IMG/VR virus record: IMGVR_UViG_2718218402_000003
Length of the DNA stretch: 33,125 bases
Strand: one strand, 5' to 3'
Origin: a virus
Taxonomy: Duplodnaviria > Heunggongvirae > Uroviricota > Caudoviricetes
Under the pieces are notes generated by a model, which saw only the letters and a program-made list of their open reading frames with translations, did not search any database and was not told where the DNA came from. This document shows positions 3,089 through 33,125 of this stretch, in pieces. The number at the start of each line of letters is the position of its first letter. Within the stretch, counting starts at the first letter, position 1. The translations under genes were made by a program, and so were the position numbers.

Positions 3089-3463
3089 ATGAAAACATTA
3101 CCCGATACACACGTACGGGAGGCATCGAGCTGCCCGTCTCCCGTCACCATCTGGCAGACTCTGCTCTCCCGACTACTGGGCCAGCATTACGGCCTTACAC
3201 TGAATGACACACCGTTCGCCGATGAACGTGTGATTGAGCAGCATATTGAAGCTGGCATTTCACTGTGTGATGCGGTGAATTTTCTCGTGGAAAAATACGC
3301 GCTGGTGCGTACCGACCAGCCGGGATTCAGCACTTGTCCCCGCTCTCAGTTAATAAACAGTATTGATATCCTCCGGGCTCGCCGGGCGACCGGCCTGATG
3401 ACCCGCGACAATTACAGAACGGTAAATAACATTACCCTGGGTAAGCATCCGGAGAAACGATGA
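3089..3463 (+). CDS. cbtA: Type IV toxin CbtA (YeeV/YpjF/YkfI family, cytoskeleton-inhibiting)
   Basis: 124-aa ORF immediately downstream of cbeA; recognised family. Confidence 0.85.
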
Positions 3464-14231: not shown

Positions 14232-14906
14232 AGCCTGCTTCTCCTTGCCTTTCGGCACGTAAGAGGCTAACCTAGATTTGCCGTTCATAGATTGAGCCTC
14301 AGATTAATGTTAAGCGTCTTGCAGGACGCGTAATGTTAACTGGGGCTTTTCTCTATCTGCCGTTGGTGTTCATGCCTGAGACAGATAGCCTCAAGCACCC
14401 GCAGCCATTCTACTTAACTCCCGTCACCTCGCCAATATGAAATCAGTCAGAAAGGCGATCCATAAGAACAACAGCAAGGCAATAAATTGCCATTACAGCA
14501 GCAATAGCCAGCGCACATTTGAGAACCAGCACCACAACCTCCTGTATTGGACGTACACCAGTCCTGATAAATATGAGGCTGTCTCGTCAGTGATTCAATA
14601 CAACTATTGGGTATAGTTTCTGTGATTTTGTTCTGTAGAAATGGAACACAACAACCAGTCACCACCAGCACTTCTTTAAATACGCCAAGTCCGACGCAAG
14701 CTAACCTTCTAGGCCGCTTTGAGCGAAGAGCGGACGCTCGCATCTGTCCCAACACACTGAGGGCTTCACGAACACCTAGGTGTACTCGTCAACTGGGAAA
14801 AAGTCAGATTATCTGTAAGCGTACAGCCTGAACCGTCTGGTCAGAATCTGACGAATTAGACAAAGTGGTGTCCACCAAATAAGTAGTGGGAACCAAAGTA
14901 TCAGAT

Positions 14907-15287
14907 ATGCAGAAAAATGTGACTCCCGGCAGGCGAAAAGGCTGCCCTAATTATCCTCCCGAATTTAAACAGCAGCTCGTTGCTGCCTCCTGTGAACCCG
15001 GGATATCCATCTCAAAACTTGCTCTTGAAAATGGCATTAACGCCAATCTGTTGTTCAAATGGCGACAACAATGGCGCGAGGGAAAGCTGCTATTACCTTC
15101 TTCAGAGAGCCCCCAGCTACTTCCTGTGACTCTCGATGCAGCTGCCGAACAGCCAGAATCGCTCGCAGAGGACCCGGAAACCCTCAGTATCAGCTGTGAG
15201 GTAACGTTCCGGCACGGGACGCTCCGCTTCAATGGCAATGTCAGCGAAAAGCTCCTGACTCTGCTGATACAGGAACTGAAGCGATGA
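14907..15287 (+). CDS. IS66-family TnpA (orf1)
   Basis: ATG at 14907 (MQKNVTPGRRKG...); the track start at 14886 is a GTG. Confidence 0.8.
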   Translation: MQKNVTPGRRKGCPNYPPEFKQQLVAASCEPGISISKLALENGINANLLFKWRQQWREGKLLLPSSESPQLLPVTLDAAAEQPESLAEDPETLSISCEVTFRHGTLRFNGNVSEKLLTLLIQELKR

Positions 15288-15631
15288 TCCCGTTACCTTC
15301 CGGGACCAAAATTTGGCTGGTTGCCGGTATCACCGATATGAGAAATGGCTTCAACGGCCTGGCTGCGAAAGTACAAACGGCGCTGAAAGACGATCCCATG
15401 TCCGGCCATGTTTTCATTTTCCGGGGCCGCAGCGGCAGTCAGGTTAAACTGCTGTGGTCCACCGGTGACGGACTGTGCCTCCTGACCAAACGGCTGGAGC
15501 GTGGGCGCTTCGCCTGGCCGTCAGCCCGTGATGGCAAAGTGTTCCTTACGCAGGCGCAGCTGGCGATGCTGCTGGAAGGTATCGACTGGCGACAGCCTAA
15601 GCGGCTGCTGACCTCCCTGACCATGCTGTAA
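15284..15631 (+). CDS. IS66-family TnpB (orf2)
   Basis: 115 aa, overlapping tnpA stop; characteristic IS66 orf2. Confidence 0.85.
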
Positions 15632-15680
15632 ATCTCTTTATCCTGGTTGTCACAGAATAAGCCCGGTAAAATACGGGCTT

Positions 15681-17219
15681 ATGAACGACATCTCTTCTGA
15701 CGACATCTTCCTGCTGAAACAGCGCCTGGCCGAACAGGAAGCGCTGATCCACGCCCTGCAGGAAAAGCTGAGCAACCGGGAGCGCGAAATAGACCATCTG
15801 CAGGCGCAGCTGGATAAACTCCGCCGGATGAACTTCGGCAGTCGTTCCGAAAAAGTCTCCCGCCGTATCGCACAAATGGAAGCCGATCTGAACCGGCTTC
15901 AGAAAGAGAGCGATACGCTGACTGGTAGGGTGTATGACCCGGCAGTACAGCGTCCGTTGCGTCAGACCCGCACCCGTAAGCCGTTCCCTGAATCACTACC
16001 CCGTGACGAAAAGCGACTGTTGCCTGCGGCGCCGTGCTGCCCGAACTGCGGCGGTTCACTGAGCTATCTGGGCGAGGATACCGCCGAACAGCTGGAGTTG
16101 ATGCGTAGCGCCTTCCGGGTTATCCGGACGGTACGGGAAAAACATGCCTGTACTCAGTGCGATGCCATCGTGCAGGCACCTGCACCTTCGCGGCCCATCG
16201 AGCGGAGTATCGCCGGACCGGGGCTGCTGGCCCGCGTGCTGACCTCGAAGTATGCAGAGCACACCCCGCTGTATCGCCAGTCAGAAATATACGGCCGGCA
16301 AGGTGTGGAGCTGAGGCGTTCACTGCTGTCGGGCTGGGTGGATGCATGCTGCCGGCTGCTGTCTCCGCTGGAAGAGGCGCTTCATGGCTATGTCATGACT
16401 GACGGCAAACTCCATGCCGATGATACCCCGGTCCAGGTACTGCTGCCGGGTAATAAGAAGACGAAGACCGGGCGGTTGTGGGCGTATGTTCGTGATGACC
16501 GCAATGCAGGGTCAGCGTTGGCACCTGCAGTGTGGTTCGCTTACAGCCCGGACAGAAAAGGCATCCATCCGCAGACTCATCTTGCCTGCTTCAGCGGTGT
16601 GCTGCAAGCGGATGCGTACGCCGGGTTCAACGAGCTGTATCGCAATGGTGGGATAACGGAAGCTGCCTGCTGGGCTCATGCCCGCCGAAAGATCCACGAT
16701 GTGCACGTCCGCATCCCGTCAGCACTGACGGAAGAAGCCCTGGAGCAGATCGGTCAGTTGTACGCCATAGAGGCGGATATAAGGGGAATGCCGGCAGAGC
16801 AGCGGCTTGCTGAACGTCAGCGAAAAACGAAACCGTTGTTGAAATCCCTGGAAAGCTGGTTGCGTGAAAAGATGAAGACCCTGTCGCGACACTCAGAGTT
16901 GGCGAAGGCGTTCGCGTACGCACTTAACCAGTGGCCGGCACTGACGTACTATGCGAACGATGGCTGGGTGGAAATCGACAACAACATCGCTGAAAATGCC
17001 CTGCGGGCGGTCAGTCTGGGTCGTAAAAACTTCCTGTTCTTCGGCTCTGACCATGGTGGTGAGCGGGGAGCGCTACTGTACAGCCTGATCGGGACGTGCA
17101 AACTGAATGACGTGGATCCAGAAAGCTACCTTCGCCATGTGCTTGGCGTCATAGCAGACTGGCCGGTCAACCGGGTCAGCGAACTGCTTCCGTGGCGCAT
17201 AGCACTGCCAGCTGAATAA
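15681..17219 (+). CDS. IS66-family transposase TnpC
   Basis: 512 aa with N-terminal leucine zipper, CxxC...CxxC zinc finger and DDE region. Confidence 0.9.
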
Positions 17220-17280
17220 CACATCCCCGTCAATACGGCCCTCGCTGTACGCTTACGATTATCTGCGTAAGTTTCAGCGT

Positions 17281-17329: not shown

Positions 17330-20300
17330 CTATGTATCTGAGCCAAACATAGAGCGCCGCCTTGTTATTTTATAATAAGTGGGATTTTCATTATCCACCT
17401 CAAAATCAGAGAAGAAGTGGTTATCTCTTAATGCTGTTAATAAACTTTGATTAGTTGAATCAACTTCAATTTTAGGTTTGCCTCGCCCCAAAATTTTACT
17501 GAACTCCGATAAACCAAGCAGATCAAGATACTCTTTGCAAGTCGTCTTACTCAAATCCTTACCCGGCAACAAAGCGATTAGCAGTGCTATTTTATTCTGC
17601 ATATTCAGTCCCTCTGCGACAAACAGGTTTTTTAGTAACGGTTCAGAAACATCATTAGGACTTGCTATCAATGCTGATATATCCTGTATTGCTCGACTCA
17701 AGATGAGCGACTGAGTAGAGGTTCCCCAAGTTTTATAAGATGACGTCAAGATTAGAAGTTCATCTGGTTTAAAATTATTTTCTAAAATATAGTCATTAAC
17801 GACCTGAGAGTAATTCTTACTATAAATAGCCAACGGAGTTTTAACAAACTCGAGTAGCTTAACTTTCAAATCATCATCAACTTTCCAAGAAAGTATTGAT
17901 ATAGCCTCATCCAAAATAAAGTTATCAATCGTCATTAATTCAACGTATGCCCTGATATTCTTATGAATATAATAGGAAAGTTGCTCTGAATAGTTATCTC
18001 GTATGAAATTAAGTGGCGCAACATTCATACGAATAATATTTTTATCCACTAATATTTTGAACTTATCACTCGCGATATTACTAGCGCTAAAGGATGTTTT
18101 ACAAATAATATTTAGTGAGCAAATTAATTTTTCATATTTATCATTTGATAAATCATTACAGATAACAATCGATTTAAATAATTTACCTTTAAGCTCGTTA
18201 TCAATATTAATATTTTGAAAATTCAGGTCTACATCAGTTCTATTGATAAATTCGATAAGTGAGTCATCCAGTCCATCAACATGTTCAAAATAAGAGACAA
18301 TATTTTCCTCAGAGCACACTGCTCTATCTTTATCCAACAAAGATGACCATAAAGATTCGCTCTCAACCTCACTCAGAGATGTCACGAAAGTTTGCAAAGC
18401 GTTTATATACTGGCCTTTTTGTTCATCAGATATTCCCTCATTATTAAGAACGGATAAAACAATGGATTCATCATCCACGATTGAACCATCACAACTAGAT
18501 AAAACCATATCCAGATAGTCCCTAATATGGTTATTAACATAACTAGCCAAGGGAGAATCAGGTTGTGACATCACTAGTGTATAGTTCTTATGGCGAATAT
18601 CATCTTCACTATTAAGCGTGTAAACCTTACTCAGCATTAAGGTCAGGTTGGAAAAATTAATATCATAAAGTGAATGCTGGTAAACCGCATCAAAGAGTAC
18701 TTTATTTGCGTTTTCAAATTTAATACTGACAAAAGAAACGTTAAGCAACTTAAAACCACTAATTAATTTGTCAACCTTCGGTTCTGATATTGCTAAATAA
18801 CCTGCCGAATCAGAGATGTAATCAGTCAGACAATCATCAATATTAATGGCCTCGATGGCGTCATTGGCAGAATAATAAAACGTGCCTATAGAGTAGAGTT
18901 TAACCCAATCAGCAGAAAATTCACTCTCTGTCAGCGCATAAGAAAAAAACTCAGGCCACTGTGTATTTAATCGATTAATGAAGACAGGCTGAGCCCTCTC
19001 AGTTTCAAAGTAACCACGAATAAACTCAACTCTTCTATCTTTTCTTAGTTGTTTGAATAAACGTTTTATTAAGTTTACCTGGGCTGGCGTTTGAAGCAGA
19101 TAAGCTAATAAATCAAAATTAAGCGCCTCTTCCTGTTCAAAATCCACTTCTCGAAGGCGGGCAACGACCAGCTTGGGGTTCTTGAGTTGATAAGTGAACT
19201 CTTTGCCTTTTTGATCGGTAATGCTGCGTAAAAACATCTTATCAATTCGACTCAGGCTATTTTCATAAAAATAGGTCATATAGTCGGTATAGGTTTCATC
19301 AATATAACCATCACGAATAAGGTATTTAAGCAAGTCAAAATACTCACTGCTTTTTATTTCATTAAAGTCTCTTTCCTCTCCAATTTCATTGGTATAGGTG
19401 AGTTTAAATATTTCATCAATGTTTTCTCTAGTTATTACTTCTTTAAGTCTTTTGTTTCTAGAATCAACCAAACTTTCTCTTGATCTTGATATAAGCTCAT
19501 TAATTTCTTCTATTTTACCATTAAATTTATTTTCAACACTTTCTTTTCTAGCCGCCCTTCTCTTTGCTATATCAGCTTTCTCAGCCTGATTATAGTGAGG
19601 ATGATTATTATATCTAGATAATTCCTTATCGTATATAGCATCAACCTCCTGACTAGAGTTGAGTATTTCATCATTGATTGCCTCAATCTCTTTTTTTCTA
19701 TCTCTAATATCTTTTTCTATTTTCTTTATTTCTTCAATAATAAGGTTGTCTTTTTCACTAAATATGGTATAAACCATACCTTGATTAAGTTGCAACTCAC
19801 TAAAATCTCTTGGGAAAATATTCTTATAGGCAATAATGGCCAACATTTTATTACAGTCAAGTTCTGTCGTGTTTAATTTGTTATAATAAATTTGAAATTC
19901 GTTATAAATATTCTTCAATATTCTCATATCATCAATATATAAAGACATCCCTTGTAGAAATCTTTCATTGAACAACTTGAGAATACCACCACCATCAAAA
20001 TGTGTGATAAACTGATCGTAAGAGTTAGAACTATCAACAACAGGAATAACTGGAATGATATAATCAAAGAATTTGGTTCTATCCTTCGAAATGAAGATAT
20101 CATCACGAAGCAAGTAAATAAAACGTAACGTCGATTTCTTGTGCCCTGCTGTGTCCCGTTGAATATTAACCAGTCTGTTAACCTCATGAAGACGTTCAAA
20201 GATGTTATTACTATTAAAACGGTCCATGTCTTCAAAAACAATGGCATCAGCATCAACGTTCTCGAAAAGGTACAATACTTCATTTAAATATCTATCGAAA

Positions 20301-20962
20301 TAAGACTCGTTACTTTCTTCAAAAATCTCTATTTCATTACCCTGTAAATTTATTTTCTTAAGAACATTACGATTCTTTTGGGTTTTTATTAACTTGTAAA
20401 TGAAAATACAAGATAGGATAGTACATATAAACCCACTAATTAAAAGCGTATCGTATTTAGTTGATAATGTAAGTAGTGTCTTTATATTACCTTCAGATAA
20501 AAGTGAAACAAACTTTTCCCACTTATTAAATAGCGTGATATGTAGTATCATAGCGATAAATAACACCGTAAAGATGGTGTTTATCACAATGTTGTTAGTT
20601 TTTATTTTTTTCTTTACTTTAAAATGTGTCTGGGGAATATCATCAGCATTAATTTGGTGAATTAACTGGTTAAGAACTTTACCTTCTAACGCGGTTTCAT
20701 TTATATCTTTACTTGGTTCATTAGTTTCAGCTTCCTCAATCGATCTGAAATGAGCAAGTGAGATATGAACAAACTTTATATTTGAATGACTTTTCTTATA
20801 GGATTCGATAAGACTACTTTTTCCTGCGCTATATTGCCCTGATATCGCAACATTTTTTAGATCGTTATTGGCAAAAACAAAATCTATCGCATTTTTATAT
20901 ACACCCAGCTCAACATCGCTGAACGGCGTTAACTTTTGAAATTTATAGCTATCATCACTCAT
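17330..20962 (-). CDS. Large (1210 aa) membrane-inserted P-loop NTPase, KAP/YobI-like; candidate stand-alone phage-defence or abortive-infection protein
   Basis: Walker A GQYSAGKS (aa 42-49, nt about 20816-20839), two predicted TM helices (aa about 125-145 and 172-192) between Walker A and Walker B IVFEDMD (aa 241-247); coiled-coil-like segment aa about 400-500; about 950 aa of unassigned C-terminal sequence; strongly AT-rich by eye; SD GGAAGGGA upstream; own terminator. CDS is certain, function is inferred. Confidence 0.6.
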   Translation of the reverse strand: MSDDSYKFQKLTPFSDVELGVYKNAIDFVFANNDLKNVAISGQYSAGKSSLIESYKKSHSNIKFVHISLAHFRSIEEAETNEPSKDINETALEGKVLNQLIHQINADDIPQTHFKVKKKIKTNNIVINTIFTVLFIAMILHITLFNKWEKFVSLLSEGNIKTLLTLSTKYDTLLISGFICTILSCIFIYKLIKTQKNRNVLKKINLQGNEIEIFEESNESYFDRYLNEVLYLFENVDADAIVFEDMDRFNSNNIFERLHEVNRLVNIQRDTAGHKKSTLRFIYLLRDDIFISKDRTKFFDYIIPVIPVVDSSNSYDQFITHFDGGGILKLFNERFLQGMSLYIDDMRILKNIYNEFQIYYNKLNTTELDCNKMLAIIAYKNIFPRDFSELQLNQGMVYTIFSEKDNLIIEEIKKIEKDIRDRKKEIEAINDEILNSSQEVDAIYDKELSRYNNHPHYNQAEKADIAKRRAARKESVENKFNGKIEEINELISRSRESLVDSRNKRLKEVITRENIDEIFKLTYTNEIGEERDFNEIKSSEYFDLLKYLIRDGYIDETYTDYMTYFYENSLSRIDKMFLRSITDQKGKEFTYQLKNPKLVVARLREVDFEQEEALNFDLLAYLLQTPAQVNLIKRLFKQLRKDRRVEFIRGYFETERAQPVFINRLNTQWPEFFSYALTESEFSADWVKLYSIGTFYYSANDAIEAINIDDCLTDYISDSAGYLAISEPKVDKLISGFKLLNVSFVSIKFENANKVLFDAVYQHSLYDINFSNLTLMLSKVYTLNSEDDIRHKNYTLVMSQPDSPLASYVNNHIRDYLDMVLSSCDGSIVDDESIVLSVLNNEGISDEQKGQYINALQTFVTSLSEVESESLWSSLLDKDRAVCSEENIVSYFEHVDGLDDSLIEFINRTDVDLNFQNINIDNELKGKLFKSIVICNDLSNDKYEKLICSLNIICKTSFSASNIASDKFKILVDKNIIRMNVAPLNFIRDNYSEQLSYYIHKNIRAYVELMTIDNFILDEAISILSWKVDDDLKVKLLEFVKTPLAIYSKNYSQVVNDYILENNFKPDELLILTSSYKTWGTSTQSLILSRAIQDISALIASPNDVSEPLLKNLFVAEGLNMQNKIALLIALLPGKDLSKTTCKEYLDLLGLSEFSKILGRGKPKIEVDSTNQSLLTALRDNHFFSDFEVDNENPTYYKITRRRSMFGSDT

Positions 20963-28330: not shown

Positions 28331-29614
28331 GTTCACAGATAAAACACTCTCCAGGAAAACCGGGGCGGTTCATACACGGGCTTACCGCAAAATGTAGATA
28401 CCGCTGAAGATTCAGAACAACCAGAGCCGATAAAAGTTACCGCTGACGAAGTAAACAAAATTATGCAGGCAGCCAATATCAGCCAGCCTGACGCCGATAA
28501 GTTGCTTGCTGCATCACGTGGTGAATTTGTTGAAGGGATTAGTGACCCGAATGATCCGAAATGGGTTAAGGGGATCCAGACCCGCGATTCTGTGAACCAG
28601 AACCAGCATGAATCGGAACGGAACTACCAAAAAGCGGAACAAAACAGTCCAAATGCGTTACAAAACGAGCCAGAAACGAAACAGCCTGAACCAGTGGCGC
28701 AACAGGAAGTGGAAAAAGTCTGCACCGCCTGCGGTCAGACCGGCGGCGGCAACTGCCCTGATTGTGGCGCGGTGATGGGCGACGCAACATACCAAGAAAC
28801 ATTCGATGAAGAGTATCAGGTTGAAGTTCAGGAAGATGATCCGGAGGAAATGGAAGGCGCTGAACATCCACACAAGGAGAACACTGGCGGCAATCAGCAT
28901 CACAATAGCGATAATGAAACTGGCGAGACGGCAGATCACCCAATTAAGGTGAACGGTCATCACGAAATCACATCCACCAGCAGGACGTGTGACCATCTAA
29001 TGATCGACCTTGAAACCATGGGAAAAAATCCTGATGCCCCGATCATCTCAATAGGTGCAATATTTTTCGATCCGCAAACCGGAGATATGGGACCGGAATT
29101 TAGTAAGACTATCGATCTGGAAACTGCTGGCGGAGTCATTGATCGGGACACCATTAAATGGTGGCTTAAGCAATCACGCGAAGCGCAATCTGCCATTATG
29201 ACCGATGAAATCCCGTTAGATGATGCACTGTTACAATTGCGGGAATTTATCGACGAAAACTCCGGTAAATTTTTTGTTCAGGTTTGGGGAAATGGAGCCA
29301 ACTTCGACAACACGATTTTGCGCCGTTCATACGAACGGCAGGGGATCCCCTGCCCGTGGCGTTACTACAACGATCGCGATGTACGCACAATCGTTGAGCT
29401 GGGGAAAGCCATAGACTTCGATGCCAGAACGGCTATTCCATTCGAAGGTGAGCGCCATAATGCACTTGATGACGCCCGTTACCAGGCAAAATACGTTTCA
29501 GTTATCTGGCAAAAACTGATCCCGAGTCAGGCTGATTCTTAATGTTCAACTGTCGCCGGTTGTGACTGGTATTCTGCAACCGGCGCTCGTCTGATGTAAG
29601 AGATAAAGAAATCG

Positions 29615-29905
29615 ATGAGCGAAGTAATCATGATTGTCTCTCCCGGCAAATGGGTATCCGAAGAGCAGTTAATTGCGCTGAAAGGAATAAAAAAAGGTAC
29701 GTTAAAAAAGGCCCGGGAAAAATCGTTTATGGAAGGAAGGGAATATAAGCATGTCGCTCATGACGGTATGCCATGGGATAACAGTCCATGCTTTTACAAC
29801 CTGGAAGAAATTGATCGCTGGATTGAGCGCCAGGCATCAGCGAGACCAAGAGTAACCGGCTCATTTAAACCGTCTGGTCTGTTTCCTCCGGCTCTACAAA
29901 AATAA
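29615..29905 (+). CDS. Excisionase-like protein (putative Xis)
   Basis: 96-aa ORF between the exonuclease and int; assignment by position and size only; its 3' end abuts an IS remnant. Confidence 0.4.
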   Translation: MSEVIMIVSPGKWVSEEQLIALKGIKKGTLKKAREKSFMEGREYKHVAHDGMPWDNSPCFYNLEEIDRWIERQASARPRVTGSFKPSGLFPPALQK

Positions 29906-30582
29906 TGTCCATCATTTTTAATGGACACTATCGTATGAAACACCGGACCTGGATCACTGAAGCTTTACGTCTTCACTTTGAAGAACATTTACCCCGGGTT
30001 GTGGCCGGGCGTCGCCTGGGTGTACCAAAATCAACAGTTTGTAGTATGTTCGTGCGCTTTCGGAGAGCTGGCCTTTCGTGGCCTTTGCCCGCAGGCATGT
30101 CGGAGCAGGAACTTGATGCCTGCCTTTACGGACAATTTTCCACGGTACCAGTCGTACGTCCTGAAAGCACCGTTATATCCGAAGCCCCCGTGGTAAAAAA
30201 ACGTCCCCGGCGGCCCAACTTCCCTTATGAGTTTAAAATCGCCTTAGTGGAGCAGTCACTGCAGCCCGGAGCCTGTGTGGCGCAGATCGCCCGGGAAAAC
30301 GGAATCAACGATAACCTGCTCTTCAACTGGCGCCATCAATACCGGAAAGGTGGCCTGCTGCCTTCCGGAAAAAATATGCCGGCACTGCTTCCCGTGACGT
30401 TAACGCCGGAGCCGGATAATAAAATCCCGGCCCCCGCACAGGAACCAGAGCAGATAAATACACCGTCCGACAGTCTGTGTTGTGAGCTGATTCTGCCGGC
30501 CGGAACTCTCAGGCTTAAAGGTAAACTGACGCCGGCGTTATTACAGACACTTATCCGCGAAATGAAAGGGAGCAGCCACTGA
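29905..30582 (+). CDS. Chimeric ORF: unidentified HTH-like N-terminus fused to an IS66-family TnpA homologue
   Basis: C-terminal part (from about aa 95: [20 protein letters not shown]...[16 protein letters not shown]...) parallels TnpA at 14907-15287; N-terminal part ([11 protein letters not shown]...) does not. Confidence 0.45.
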
Positions 30583-31787
30583 TGATATCTCTCCCTGCCG
30601 GTTCTCTGGGATGTGATGTGTCAGAGCAACTGGAGCTTATCAGCAGCGCCTTTAAGGTTATCGAAACACAACGTCCGAAACTGGCCTGTTGCCGGTGCGA
30701 CCATATCGTGCAGGCACCGGTGCCTTCAAAACCCATTGCACGCAGTTATGCCGGAGCGGGGCTCCTGGCCCATGTCGTCACCGGAAAATATGCAGACCAT
30801 CTGCCGTTATACCGCCAGTCAGAGATATACCGCCGTCAGGGTGTGGAGCTGAGCCGTGCCACACTGGGGCGCTGGACTGGTGCCGTTGCTGAACTACTGG
30901 AGCCGCTGTATGACGTCCTGCGCCAGTATGTGCTGATGCCCGGTAAAGTCCATGCTGATGATATCCCCGTCCCGGTCCAGGAGCCGGGCAGCGGTAAAAC
31001 CCGGACAGCCCGGCTGTGGGTCTACGTCCGTGATGACCGTAACGCCGGTTCACAGATGCCCCCGGCGGTCTGGTTCGCGTACAGTCCGGACCGGAAAGGT
31101 ATCCATCCACAAAATCACCTGGCCGGTTACAGCGGTGTGCTTCAGGCCGATGCTTACGGTGGTTACCGGGCGTTATACGAATCCGGCAGAATAACGGAAG
31201 CCGCGTGTATGGCTCATGCCCGGAGAAAAATCCACGATGTGCATGCAAGAGCGCCCACCGACATCACCACGGAAGCCCTGCAGCGTATCGGTGAACTGTA
31301 TGCCATCGAGGCAGAGGTCCGGGGCTGTTCAGCAGAACAGCGTCTGGCGGCAAGAAAAACCAGAGCCGCGCCACTGATGCAGTCACTGTATGACTGGATA
31401 CAGCAACAGATGAAAACACTGTCGCGTCACTCAGATACGGCAAAAGCGTTCGCATACCTGCTGAAACAGTGGGATGCACTGAACGTGTACTGCAGTAATG
31501 GCTGGGTGGAAATCGACAACAACATCGCAGAGAACGCCTTACGGGGAGTGGCCGTAGGCCGGAAAAACTGGATGTTCGCGGGTTCCGACAGCGGTGGTGA
31601 ACATGCGGCGGTGTTGTACTCGCTGATCGGCACATGCCGTCTGAACAATGTGGAGCCAGAAAAGTGGCTGCGCTACGTCATTGAACATATCCAGGACTGG
31701 CCGGCAAACCGGGTACGCGATCTGTTGCCCTGGAAAGTTGATCTGAGCTCTCAGTAAATATCAATACGGTTCTGACGAGCCGCTTAC
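30140..31787 (+). mobile_element. Defective IS66-family element (internal deletion; left end degenerate)
   Basis: Right IR ...CAATACGGTTCTGACGAGCCGCTTAC ending 31787; left-IR-like sequence only partially recognisable around 30136-30170; tnpB and the 5' third of tnpC are absent. Left boundary is approximate. Confidence 0.55.
30582..31757 (+). CDS. N-terminally truncated IS66-family transposase (tnpB-start/tnpC fusion)
   Basis: 391 aa; MISLPAGS resembles the TnpB start MIPLPSGT; from [16 protein letters not shown] it aligns to TnpC residues about 128-512 of the intact copy. Confidence 0.8.
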
Positions 31788-31844
31788 GACCAAGACGTCA
31801 TCTTACTTGACTAAAAGCCACACTAACTAATGAGAGAAGTTGAA

Positions 31845-33125
31845 ATGAAATATCCGACAGGCGTGGAAAACCATGGAGGGAAATTACGTATCTGGTTTGT
31901 TTATAAAGGCGTAAGAGTCAGGGAAAATCTGGGGGTTCCTGACACAGCAAAAAACAGGCGCGTTGCAGGTGAACTACGCTCCTCTGTTTGTTACGCAATA
32001 AAAACTGGTGTTTTCGACTATGCAAAACAGTTTCCCTCCTCACGCAATCTGGAAAAATTTGGTGAGGCCCGACAAGATTTAACCATAAAAGAACTGGCTG
32101 AAAAATTTCTGGCACTGAAAGAAACTGAAGTCGCCAAAACATCACTCAACACATACCGTGCCGTCATCAAAAATATCCTGAGCATAATCGGTGAAAAAAA
32201 TCTTGCCTCATCGATTAATAAAGAAAAATTACTGGAGGTTCGTAAAGAGCTACTGACTGGATACCAGATCCCCAAAAGTAACTATATTGTTACACAATCA
32301 GGGAGATCGGCTGTAACTGTAAATAATTACATGACAAATCTTAACGCCGTGTTCCAGTTTGGTGTTGATAACGGTTACCTGGCAGATAATCCGTTTAAGG
32401 GGATCTCGCCATTAAAGGAATCAAGAACCATTCCGGATCCTCTTTCGCGGGAGGAATTTATCCGTCTTATCGATGCGTGCAGAAATCAGCAAGCAAAAAA
32501 TTTATGGTGTGTTTCTGTTTATACTGGCGTTCGCCCTGGTGAGCTGTGTGCACTTGGATGGGAGGACATAGATCTGAAAAATGGAACAATGATGATCAGG
32601 AGAAATTTAGCAAAAGACCGTTTCACGGTACCAAAAACACAGGCGGGAACCAATCGGGTCATTCATCTTATTAAGCCAGCAATCGACGCTCTCCGGAGTC
32701 AGATGACATTAACGAGACTGAGCAAAGAGCATATCATTGATGTTCACCTCAGAGAGTATGGCAGAACAGAAAAACAAAAATGCACCTTTGTTTTTCAACC
32801 TGAAGTGTCAGCGAGAGTAAAAAATTATGGTGACCATTTTACCGTTGACTCAATAAGGCAGATGTGGGACGCAGCGATAAAACGTGCCGGACTCCGCCAT
32901 CGAAAATCATATCAGTCGAGACATACTTATGCCTGCTGGTCGCTGACAGCTGGTGCTAACCCGGCATTTATAGCAAACCAGATGGGCCATGCAGATGCGC
33001 AAATGGTATTTCAGGTATACGGAAAATGGATGTCTGAAAACAATAATGCACAGGTAGCTTTGTTAAATACACAGTTAAGCGAGTTTGCCCCAACCATGCC
33101 CCATAACGAATCAATGAAAAATTAA
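31845..33125 (+). CDS. intQ: Tyrosine-type phage integrase (IntQ-like, apparently intact)
   Basis: 426 aa from MKYPTGVENHGGKLRIWF...; C-terminal catalytic region with SRHTY...GHADAQMVFQVYGKW; stop codon is the last 3 nt of the window. Confidence 0.85.
   Translation: MKYPTGVENHGGKLRIWFVYKGVRVRENLGVPDTAKNRRVAGELRSSVCYAIKTGVFDYAKQFPSSRNLEKFGEARQDLTIKELAEKFLALKETEVAKTSLNTYRAVIKNILSIIGEKNLASSINKEKLLEVRKELLTGYQIPKSNYIVTQSGRSAVTVNNYMTNLNAVFQFGVDNGYLADNPFKGISPLKESRTIPDPLSREEFIRLIDACRNQQAKNLWCVSVYTGVRPGELCALGWEDIDLKNGTMMIRRNLAKDRFTVPKTQAGTNRVIHLIKPAIDALRSQMTLTRLSKEHIIDVHLREYGRTEKQKCTFVFQPEVSARVKNYGDHFTVDSIRQMWDAAIKRAGLRHRKSYQSRHTYACWSLTAGANPAFIANQMGHADAQMVFQVYGKWMSENNNAQVALLNTQLSEFAPTMPHNESMKN

Follow-up and report, generated by a model that had tools for sequence, protein, structure and literature searches.

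A defective, internally deleted copy of ISCro1 inserted in the 3′ end of xis in a lambdoid prophage

The insertion sequence (IS) ISCro1, a member of the mechanistically poorly characterized IS66 family, was first named in Citrobacter rodentium and occurs widely in E. coli, Shigella, and Salmonella; the full-length element of strain FORC 064 (locus L001) measures 2,699 bp and carries tnpA, tnpB, and tnpC. In C. rodentium ICC168, it has expanded to 24 copies (PMC3072379), and an 8-bp duplication of the target is reported as the norm for IS66 insertion (PMC6778807). Here, we describe a defective copy of ISCro1 occupying positions 29852–31787 (1,936 bp) of a 33,125-nt stretch of viral DNA (Caudoviricetes; IMG/VR record IMGVR_UViG_2718218402_000003), referred to throughout as the window. 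The window also carries an intact element of the same family, ISEc8, which shares with ISCro1 the tnpA-tnpB-tnpC organization, the GTAAGCG-type ends, and the 8-bp target-site duplication (TSD; GATTATCT, at 14807–14814 and 17257–17264), but which is only ~68% identical to it in nucleotide sequence over tnpC and 78% over tnpB, and whose 133-aa TnpA lacks the IstA-like domain discussed below. An internally deleted copy of a catalogued IS is of an already known kind and a routine case for annotation. Its value is corrective, in that the element is bounded at 29852–31787, xis is identified as the disrupted gene, the long TnpA is recognized as native, and ISEc8 is recognized as the wrong reference. 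Modest leads on IS66 biology are offered by the recurrent ISCro1 insertions in xis-int and by a palindrome, conserved in the tnpA leader, that accompanies an IstA-like helix-turn-helix (HTH) domain in TnpA.

The element was compared with public copies by megablast of positions 29550–31850 against 5,426 complete E. coli genomes, which returned thousands of copies annotated as “IS66-like element ISCro1 family transposase,” together with tnpA and tnpB. The name ISCro1 was taken from the RefSeq/PGAP “ISCro1 family” annotation of copies that are 100% identical; under the ISfinder isoform rule, near-identity to a named IS amounts to membership. RefSeq labels the genes of the full-length copy in L001 as tnpA (225 aa), tnpB, and “IS66-like element ISCro1 family transposase.” Over its whole 1,936 bp, the window element is 100% identical to this copy, with 0 mismatches in either arm. 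The alignments of the left and right arms to L001 overlap by 4 bp, and 763 bp of the 2,699-bp element (element positions 754/758–1512/1516) are missing between them. The element thus has the inverted repeats (IRs), the TSD length, and the 225-aa TnpA of ISCro1 and differs from it in the absence of these 763 bp, which hold tnpB from codon 8 onward and the codons for TnpC residues 1–139/140. No further ISCro1 sequence was found in the window. Alignment against the intact copy at 14815–17256, which the first-pass annotation of this DNA had proposed as reference, was run and gave no breakpoints; that copy is ISEc8, whose divergence over tnpC makes it unfit for this purpose. The deleted element does not derive from ISEc8, and public full-length ISCro1 was used as reference instead.

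Both ends of the element are present. The first-pass annotation had placed a defective IS66 element at 29615–31787, with an intact right IR but with no canonical left IR or TSD. The feature it sensed is real but was mis-bounded: position 29615 is the start codon of xis, and the element starts at 29852. At this position, the left IR (IRL) begins GTAACCGGCTC, with one mismatch relative to the usual GTAAGCG, and the left end is identical to that of full-length ISCro1 copies in 12 public loci; it was probably overlooked owing to the C-for-G mismatch at position 5. The right IR (IRR) does end at 31787, as alignment to IRL bears out, and its reverse complement starts GTAAGCGGCTC. The IS66 terminal sequence 5′-GTAA(G/C)CG is therefore found at both ends, and 19 of the first 26 positions match between IRL (GTAACCGGCTCATTTAAACCGT...) and IRR. 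Directly outside both ends lies a perfect 8-bp TSD, GACCAAGA. In the empty site of L001, this octamer is present once (3295–3302), and the sequence is continuous across the insertion point. Identical ends, each pair flanked by its own perfect 8-bp TSD, are seen in the 12 public full-length copies, all of which lie in this region. The ends and the TSD length agree with IS66, for which the duplication is reported to be 8 bp (PMC6778807).

The deletion has clean borders. In L001, the tetranucleotide GTTC is found at each breakpoint, the first lying between ...CCCTGCCGGTTC and GCGTATC... and the second between ...GAACTCAGTTC and TCTGGGA.... The lost segment runs from codon 8 of tnpB through the spacer that separates tnpB from tnpC and takes in the first ~140 tnpC codons, so that ~140 of the 523 TnpC residues (27%) are gone from the N terminus. 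The proposal that tnpB and the N-terminal third of tnpC are missing, and that a deletion had fused the 5′ end of tnpB to mid-tnpC, was therefore correct: the surviving transposase ORF (open reading frame) opens with MISLPAG(S), the start of TnpB, and after seven tnpB codons continues in frame with (S) and TnpC from residue 140/141. The fusion retains DDE_Tnp_IS66 (E = 7e-104) and the C-terminal element IS66_C. LZ_Tnp_IS66 is absent, and the match to zf-IS66 is limited to profile positions 14–46; the first zinc-finger CxxC (CCPAC), just upstream of the breakpoint, is deleted, and the second cysteine pair (CCRC) is kept. Neither a full-length TnpC nor a tnpB gene (PF05717) is present, the latter being reduced to codons 1–7/8; tnpB was lost secondarily, which makes the element a defective member of ISCro1 and of the IS66 family. 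The start codon of the fusion is the old tnpB start and overlaps the tnpA stop (TGATG), and for this reason the fusion would probably be translated as TnpB normally is.

Short IS66 relatives also occur naturally, and a two-ORF member that had never undergone a deletion would likewise have intact ends and a TSD. In the ISBst12 group, an IS66-type transposase without a tnpB partner is flanked by an 8-bp direct repeat (PMC12898284); these elements are natural, multi-copy, and active, whereas the window copy keeps tnpA, its second ORF is a tnpB′-′tnpC deletion fusion, and its missing part is a recent deletion. A natural two-ORF architecture is hardly tenable, given the absence of mismatches to a three-ORF element, a clean gap with 4-bp microhomology, a second ORF that opens with seven tnpB codons, and a junction absent from all other genomes, plasmids, and metagenome contigs searched. 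No contiguous match to a 121-bp probe spanning this junction was obtained in the 5,426 complete E. coli genomes or in 72,556 plasmids, and a 35-mer across it had no exact match in metagenome contigs or GTDB representative genomes. Exact-protein look-ups of the 391-aa fusion and of the altered Xis found neither on record. Probes across both IS/host junctions matched only as split pieces, and the insertion site was not seen elsewhere. Within the collections searched, the allele is confined to the source of the window.

A unique junction in an IS, a class of sequence that is often misassembled, is also what an assembly or sequencing artefact in a full-length ISCro1 would produce. Collapse normally needs a repeat, however, and only 4 bp are shared at this junction, which is clean and in frame; we regard an artefact as unlikely. 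Somewhat less improbable, although still a minor alternative, is an element deleted before insertion, that is, a non-autonomous derivative that a full-length copy in the same cell mobilized in trans. In favor of this, the window copy retains both IRs and the TSD intact, and in E. coli, ISCro1 often occupies several places in a genome (median, 2; maximum, 36). Against such mobilization, no second copy of the junction was found anywhere searched, and the window holds no other ISCro1 sequence. The intact IRs and incomplete gene set recall a mobilizable derivative resembling a miniature inverted-repeat transposable element, but no dispersed copies of the short form were found in the genomes, plasmids, and contigs searched.

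The reading that we hold with high confidence is that a full-length ISCro1 inserted in xis and then lost 763 bp internally, leaving a defective, non-autonomous element; the uniqueness of junction and insertion site in the collections searched favors this order, with deletion in situ. In a lambdoid prophage of an E. coli-type genome, xis would have received the 2,699-bp element at its 3′ end, with duplication of GACCAAGA, and the 763 bp would have been lost later by illegitimate recombination or slippage between the two GTTC tetranucleotides. The outcome would be a 1,936-bp non-autonomous element with intact ends and tnpA, no TnpB, and an N-terminally truncated TnpC, mobile only with proteins supplied by a full ISCro1 elsewhere. 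Nothing was found that contradicts this anatomy, and the identity of the element, its ends, TSD, and empty site, the breakpoints, the fused reading frame, and the domain content are directly demonstrated; that deletion followed insertion, that autonomous transposition was lost, that the fusion is expressed, and that prophage excision is affected in any way are inferences.

Several points weigh against this reading. An already deleted copy could have been mobilized in trans, which would reverse the order of insertion and deletion, and on sequence alone the gap may reflect assembly collapse. The presumed loss of function leans on IS679, in which tnpA, tnpB, and tnpC are each said to be needed. 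Single-ORF relatives of the ISBst12 group transpose without tnpA or tnpB (PMC12898284), so a truncated TnpC is not inactive by definition. Inactivity of the window copy would follow mainly from the absence of the leucine zipper and of half the zinc finger.

The Inh protein of Tn5/IS50 is a transposase that lacks the N-terminal DNA-binding or dimerization part and keeps the catalytic core, as the fusion does; Inh is an evolved product of an intact element, whereas the truncation seen here is an accidental deletion. By this analogy, the in-frame TnpB′-′TnpC fusion may act as a trans-dominant inhibitor of ISCro1, which we consider a weaker possibility than the insertion hot spot described below.

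Table 1. Features of the defective ISCro1 copy, its alignment to the empty site and full-length element of L001, and neighboring genes and elements
Feature	Position in window	Strand	Remarks
Left TSD copy	29844–29851		8 bp, GACCAAGA
Left terminal IR	29852–29877	+	GTAACCGGCTCATTTAAACCGTCTGG; aligned with reverse complement of right end
tnpA	29905–30582	+	native long-type IS66 accessory protein, 225 aa as in RefSeq copies; from Pfam, NF038385, and pairwise comparisons
Leader inverted repeat TGTCCAT-N8-ATGGACA	29906–29927 (arms 29906–29912 and 29921–29927)	+	native ISCro1 feature just upstream of probable tnpA start
Fusion ORF	30582–31757	+	391 aa; TnpB residues 1–7/8 joined in frame to TnpC 140/141–523; from Pfam, NCBIfam NF033517, and translation
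Deletion junction	30601–30604	+	4-bp microhomology GTTC; junction sequence TCTCCCTGCCGGTTCTCTGGGATG
Right terminal IR	31762–31787	−	reverse complement GTAAGCGGCTCGTCAGAACCGTATTG
Right TSD copy	31788–31795		GACCAAGA; followed by displaced last 15 nt of native xis
Alignment: exo 3′ end and xis	29400–29851		L001 2851–3302, 100% identity
Alignment: ISCro1 left part	29852–30604		L001 3438–4190, 100% identity
Alignment: ISCro1 right part	30601–31787/89		L001 4950–6136/38, 100% identity
Alignment: xis end, spacer, int start	31788–31931		L001 3295–3438, 99.3% identity, one mismatch
xis with altered 3′ end	29615–29905	+	DUF1233 excisionase; PF06806, E = 2.5e-31
Tyrosine integrase int	31845–33125	+	full-length, 1,281 nt, RefSeq-type start MKYPTG; Pfam Arm-DNA-bind_2 and Phage_integrase
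ISEc8 (IS66 family), intact	14815–17256		three genes, tnpA-tnpB-tnpC; 100% identical to reference copies

The accessory gene tnpA of IS66 elements is retained complete. Its 225-aa product is identical to TnpA of full-length ISCro1 (RefSeq WP_001373818.1; 100% identity to the L001 tnpA) and matches PF01527 (E = 8.5e-15). The canonical IS66 TnpA part (HTH_Tnp_1) lies at residues 99–221, and only these residues align with the 133-aa TnpA of ISEc8 (43% identity, E = 1e-29), leaving an N-terminal extension of ~90 aa without counterpart. The first-pass annotation had noticed this extension and had explained it by a chimera: an IS66 remnant without left end or TSD, in which tnpA was locally fused to ~90 aa of unrelated sequence from another IS, such as IS21, beginning at a small palindrome. 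A resemblance to IS21 does exist. When the extension was searched by tblastn against the 72,556 plasmids, the matches following those to IS66 elements were the N termini of annotated IS21-family IstA proteins, with E down to 8e-7. Pairwise BLASTP aligned TnpA residues 17–76 (window 29953–30132) with IstA residues 11–69 at 38% identity (E = 5e-12), including AGL(S/K)WPLPAGMS. The IS21 models of Pfam and NCBIfam reported no such link for the TnpA N-terminal domain, and no meaningful match to TnpA came from a sequence search of the PDB.

The resemblance of the N-terminal ~75 aa to IstA and their absence from ISEc8 TnpA are what a local fusion would predict, but the remaining evidence leaves such a chimera next to no probability, and it was rejected. 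Between 29852 and the deletion point, all 753 bp are 100% identical to the left part of TSD-flanked full-length ISCro1 in public genomes, and the HTH-like segment lies inside ISCro1, 53 bp from IRL, in all copies. The NCBIfam equivalog NF038385, “IS66-like element accessory protein TnpA,” covers the two-domain protein as one family (residues 13–206, E = 2.1e-88) and also matches the first 100 residues alone (E = 2.5e-28). At 41% identity, TnpA also aligns over its whole length, extension included, with its counterpart from a plasmid-borne, distantly related IS66 element of E. coli (locus L015). The left IR and TSD are present, as described above, and no IS21 inverted repeat, istA DDE domain (rve), or istB adjoins the HTH-like segment. 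Given the whole-length alignment with the plasmid relative, the ~90-aa extension is a conserved domain of a TnpA subfamily, with no local fusion. The N-terminal domain of long-type IS66 TnpA, an IstA-like HTH, is an ancient homolog of the IstA N terminus, so that the suspected connection to IS21 holds as domain ancestry and fails as a local remnant. From IstA itself, TnpA differs in lacking the DDE domain (rve), an istB partner, and IS21 ends, and the domain is constitutive in long-type IS66 TnpA (NF038385).

The palindrome at which the fusion was thought to begin is real, one base away from the 29907–29928 first assigned to it. It is not the end of an IS remnant; it lies 55 bp inside ISCro1, and its core is conserved in the leaders of related tnpA genes. 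By statistics alone it is unremarkable: chance would give about 1.25 inverted repeats of 7 bp per element, this one contains 2, and only conservation in relatives suggests a function. Six IS66 elements with a long TnpA (relatives at L015, L016, L017, L018, and L020) share an invariant core, GTCCA...TGGAC, in the same place, with the right arm 9–10 nt upstream of the tnpA start codon. Two of the six have only 41% TnpA identity and a diverged surrounding leader, and the core is still kept. An A-to-G change in the right arm of two relatives would preserve a U·G pair in RNA, and one flanking pair changes from AU to CG among relatives. The predicted RNA fold of the window tnpA leader has a dG of −15.5 kcal/mol (z = −4.1). 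The loop has one extra nucleotide in two relatives, placing the equivalent of the ATG at 29905 out of frame; on this comparison, the true start of tnpA is probably the ATG at 29935 (215 aa), and RefSeq annotation in one strain starts tnpA at the equivalent codon. The only GGA upstream of this ATG lies in the right arm of the palindrome. The palindrome may act either as an operator for the TnpA HTH or as an RNA hairpin in the leader that occludes the ribosome-binding site; the data fit both.

The element had been described as lying between xis and int, which is approximately so; strictly, it lies within xis. The native part of the gene extends over 29615–29851 (79 codons), and insertion occurred after nt 237 of the 252-nt xis (length as in RefSeq for L001), 15 nt before the stop codon. 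Native Xis ends ...ARPRRHLT; the window Xis reads into the IS and ends ...ARPRVTGSFKPSGLFPPALQK. The 4 native residues at its C terminus (RHLT) give way to 17 encoded by the IS, so that the protein measures 96 aa versus 83, and the DUF1233 domain (residues 5–73) is untouched. The new stop codon, TAA, overlaps the first ATG of the tnpA ORF. Downstream of the element, the int ORF opens at 31830/31845, runs to the end of the window, and is equal in length to the intact int in L002. A promoter scan of 29500–32000 gave no sigma-70-like site. Xis thus keeps its whole domain with a new tail, and int, although intact, is separated by the 1.9-kb element from xis and its upstream transcription signals; such a split excision module may help fix the prophage in the chromosome. 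In relatives, the homologous lambdoid prophage adjoins rspB at the Qin site, and none of the complete E. coli genomes matches the neighboring 12.6 kb of prophage over ≥80%. The exonuclease ORF upstream of xis (28463–29542) encodes 359 aa, whereas most related prophages have a 2,472-nt (823-aa) exo; the window exo appears to be N-terminally shortened or replaced.

The xis-int module has received ISCro1 repeatedly. Within ~1.3 kb of this module (window 29596–33125) in the rspB-adjacent prophage family, at least 14 public forward insertion sites were found, or at least 15 with that of the window. Twelve of the public sites were mapped; the outermost lie 19 nt upstream of xis and at int nt 956, and every one has its own TSD. 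The comparison covered loci L001–L012, L021, and L022, and further distinct spans came from the matches listed. An exo-anchored probe gave 77 genomes with a forward insertion and 81 with a reverse insertion. The 30 reverse matches listed share one span, and in the mapped reverse cases, O26:H11 11368 and WS3294A, ISCro1 lies at CGTTAAAA (xis nt 86–93); strain Cn5 has exactly the same 8-bp target occupied in the opposite orientation, so that both orientations are found there in different lineages. An apparent orientation bias (12 of 12 loci forward) was rejected as a ranking artefact, given the counts obtained with the reversed query. With a control probe anchored in the neighboring exo (nt 1–600 of the gene), no genome had a forward insertion in the next 1.3 kb. 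The G+C content is 42.7% in the target region and 49.2% in exo.

We tentatively propose that the window copy is one instance of a real regional hot spot for ISCro1 insertion in xis-int, a possibility that we do not favor at present. Either a preference for the target or selection for insertions that disable excision could underlie the hot region. If true, a hot spot would mean either that IS66 transposition is directed to a local DNA or nucleoprotein feature of the excision module or that recurrent selection locks the prophage in place.

Directly beside ISEc8, a 1,210-aa ORF on the minus strand (17330–20962) is annotated in relatives as a YobI-family P-loop NTPase and may be a prophage-borne defense-type gene.

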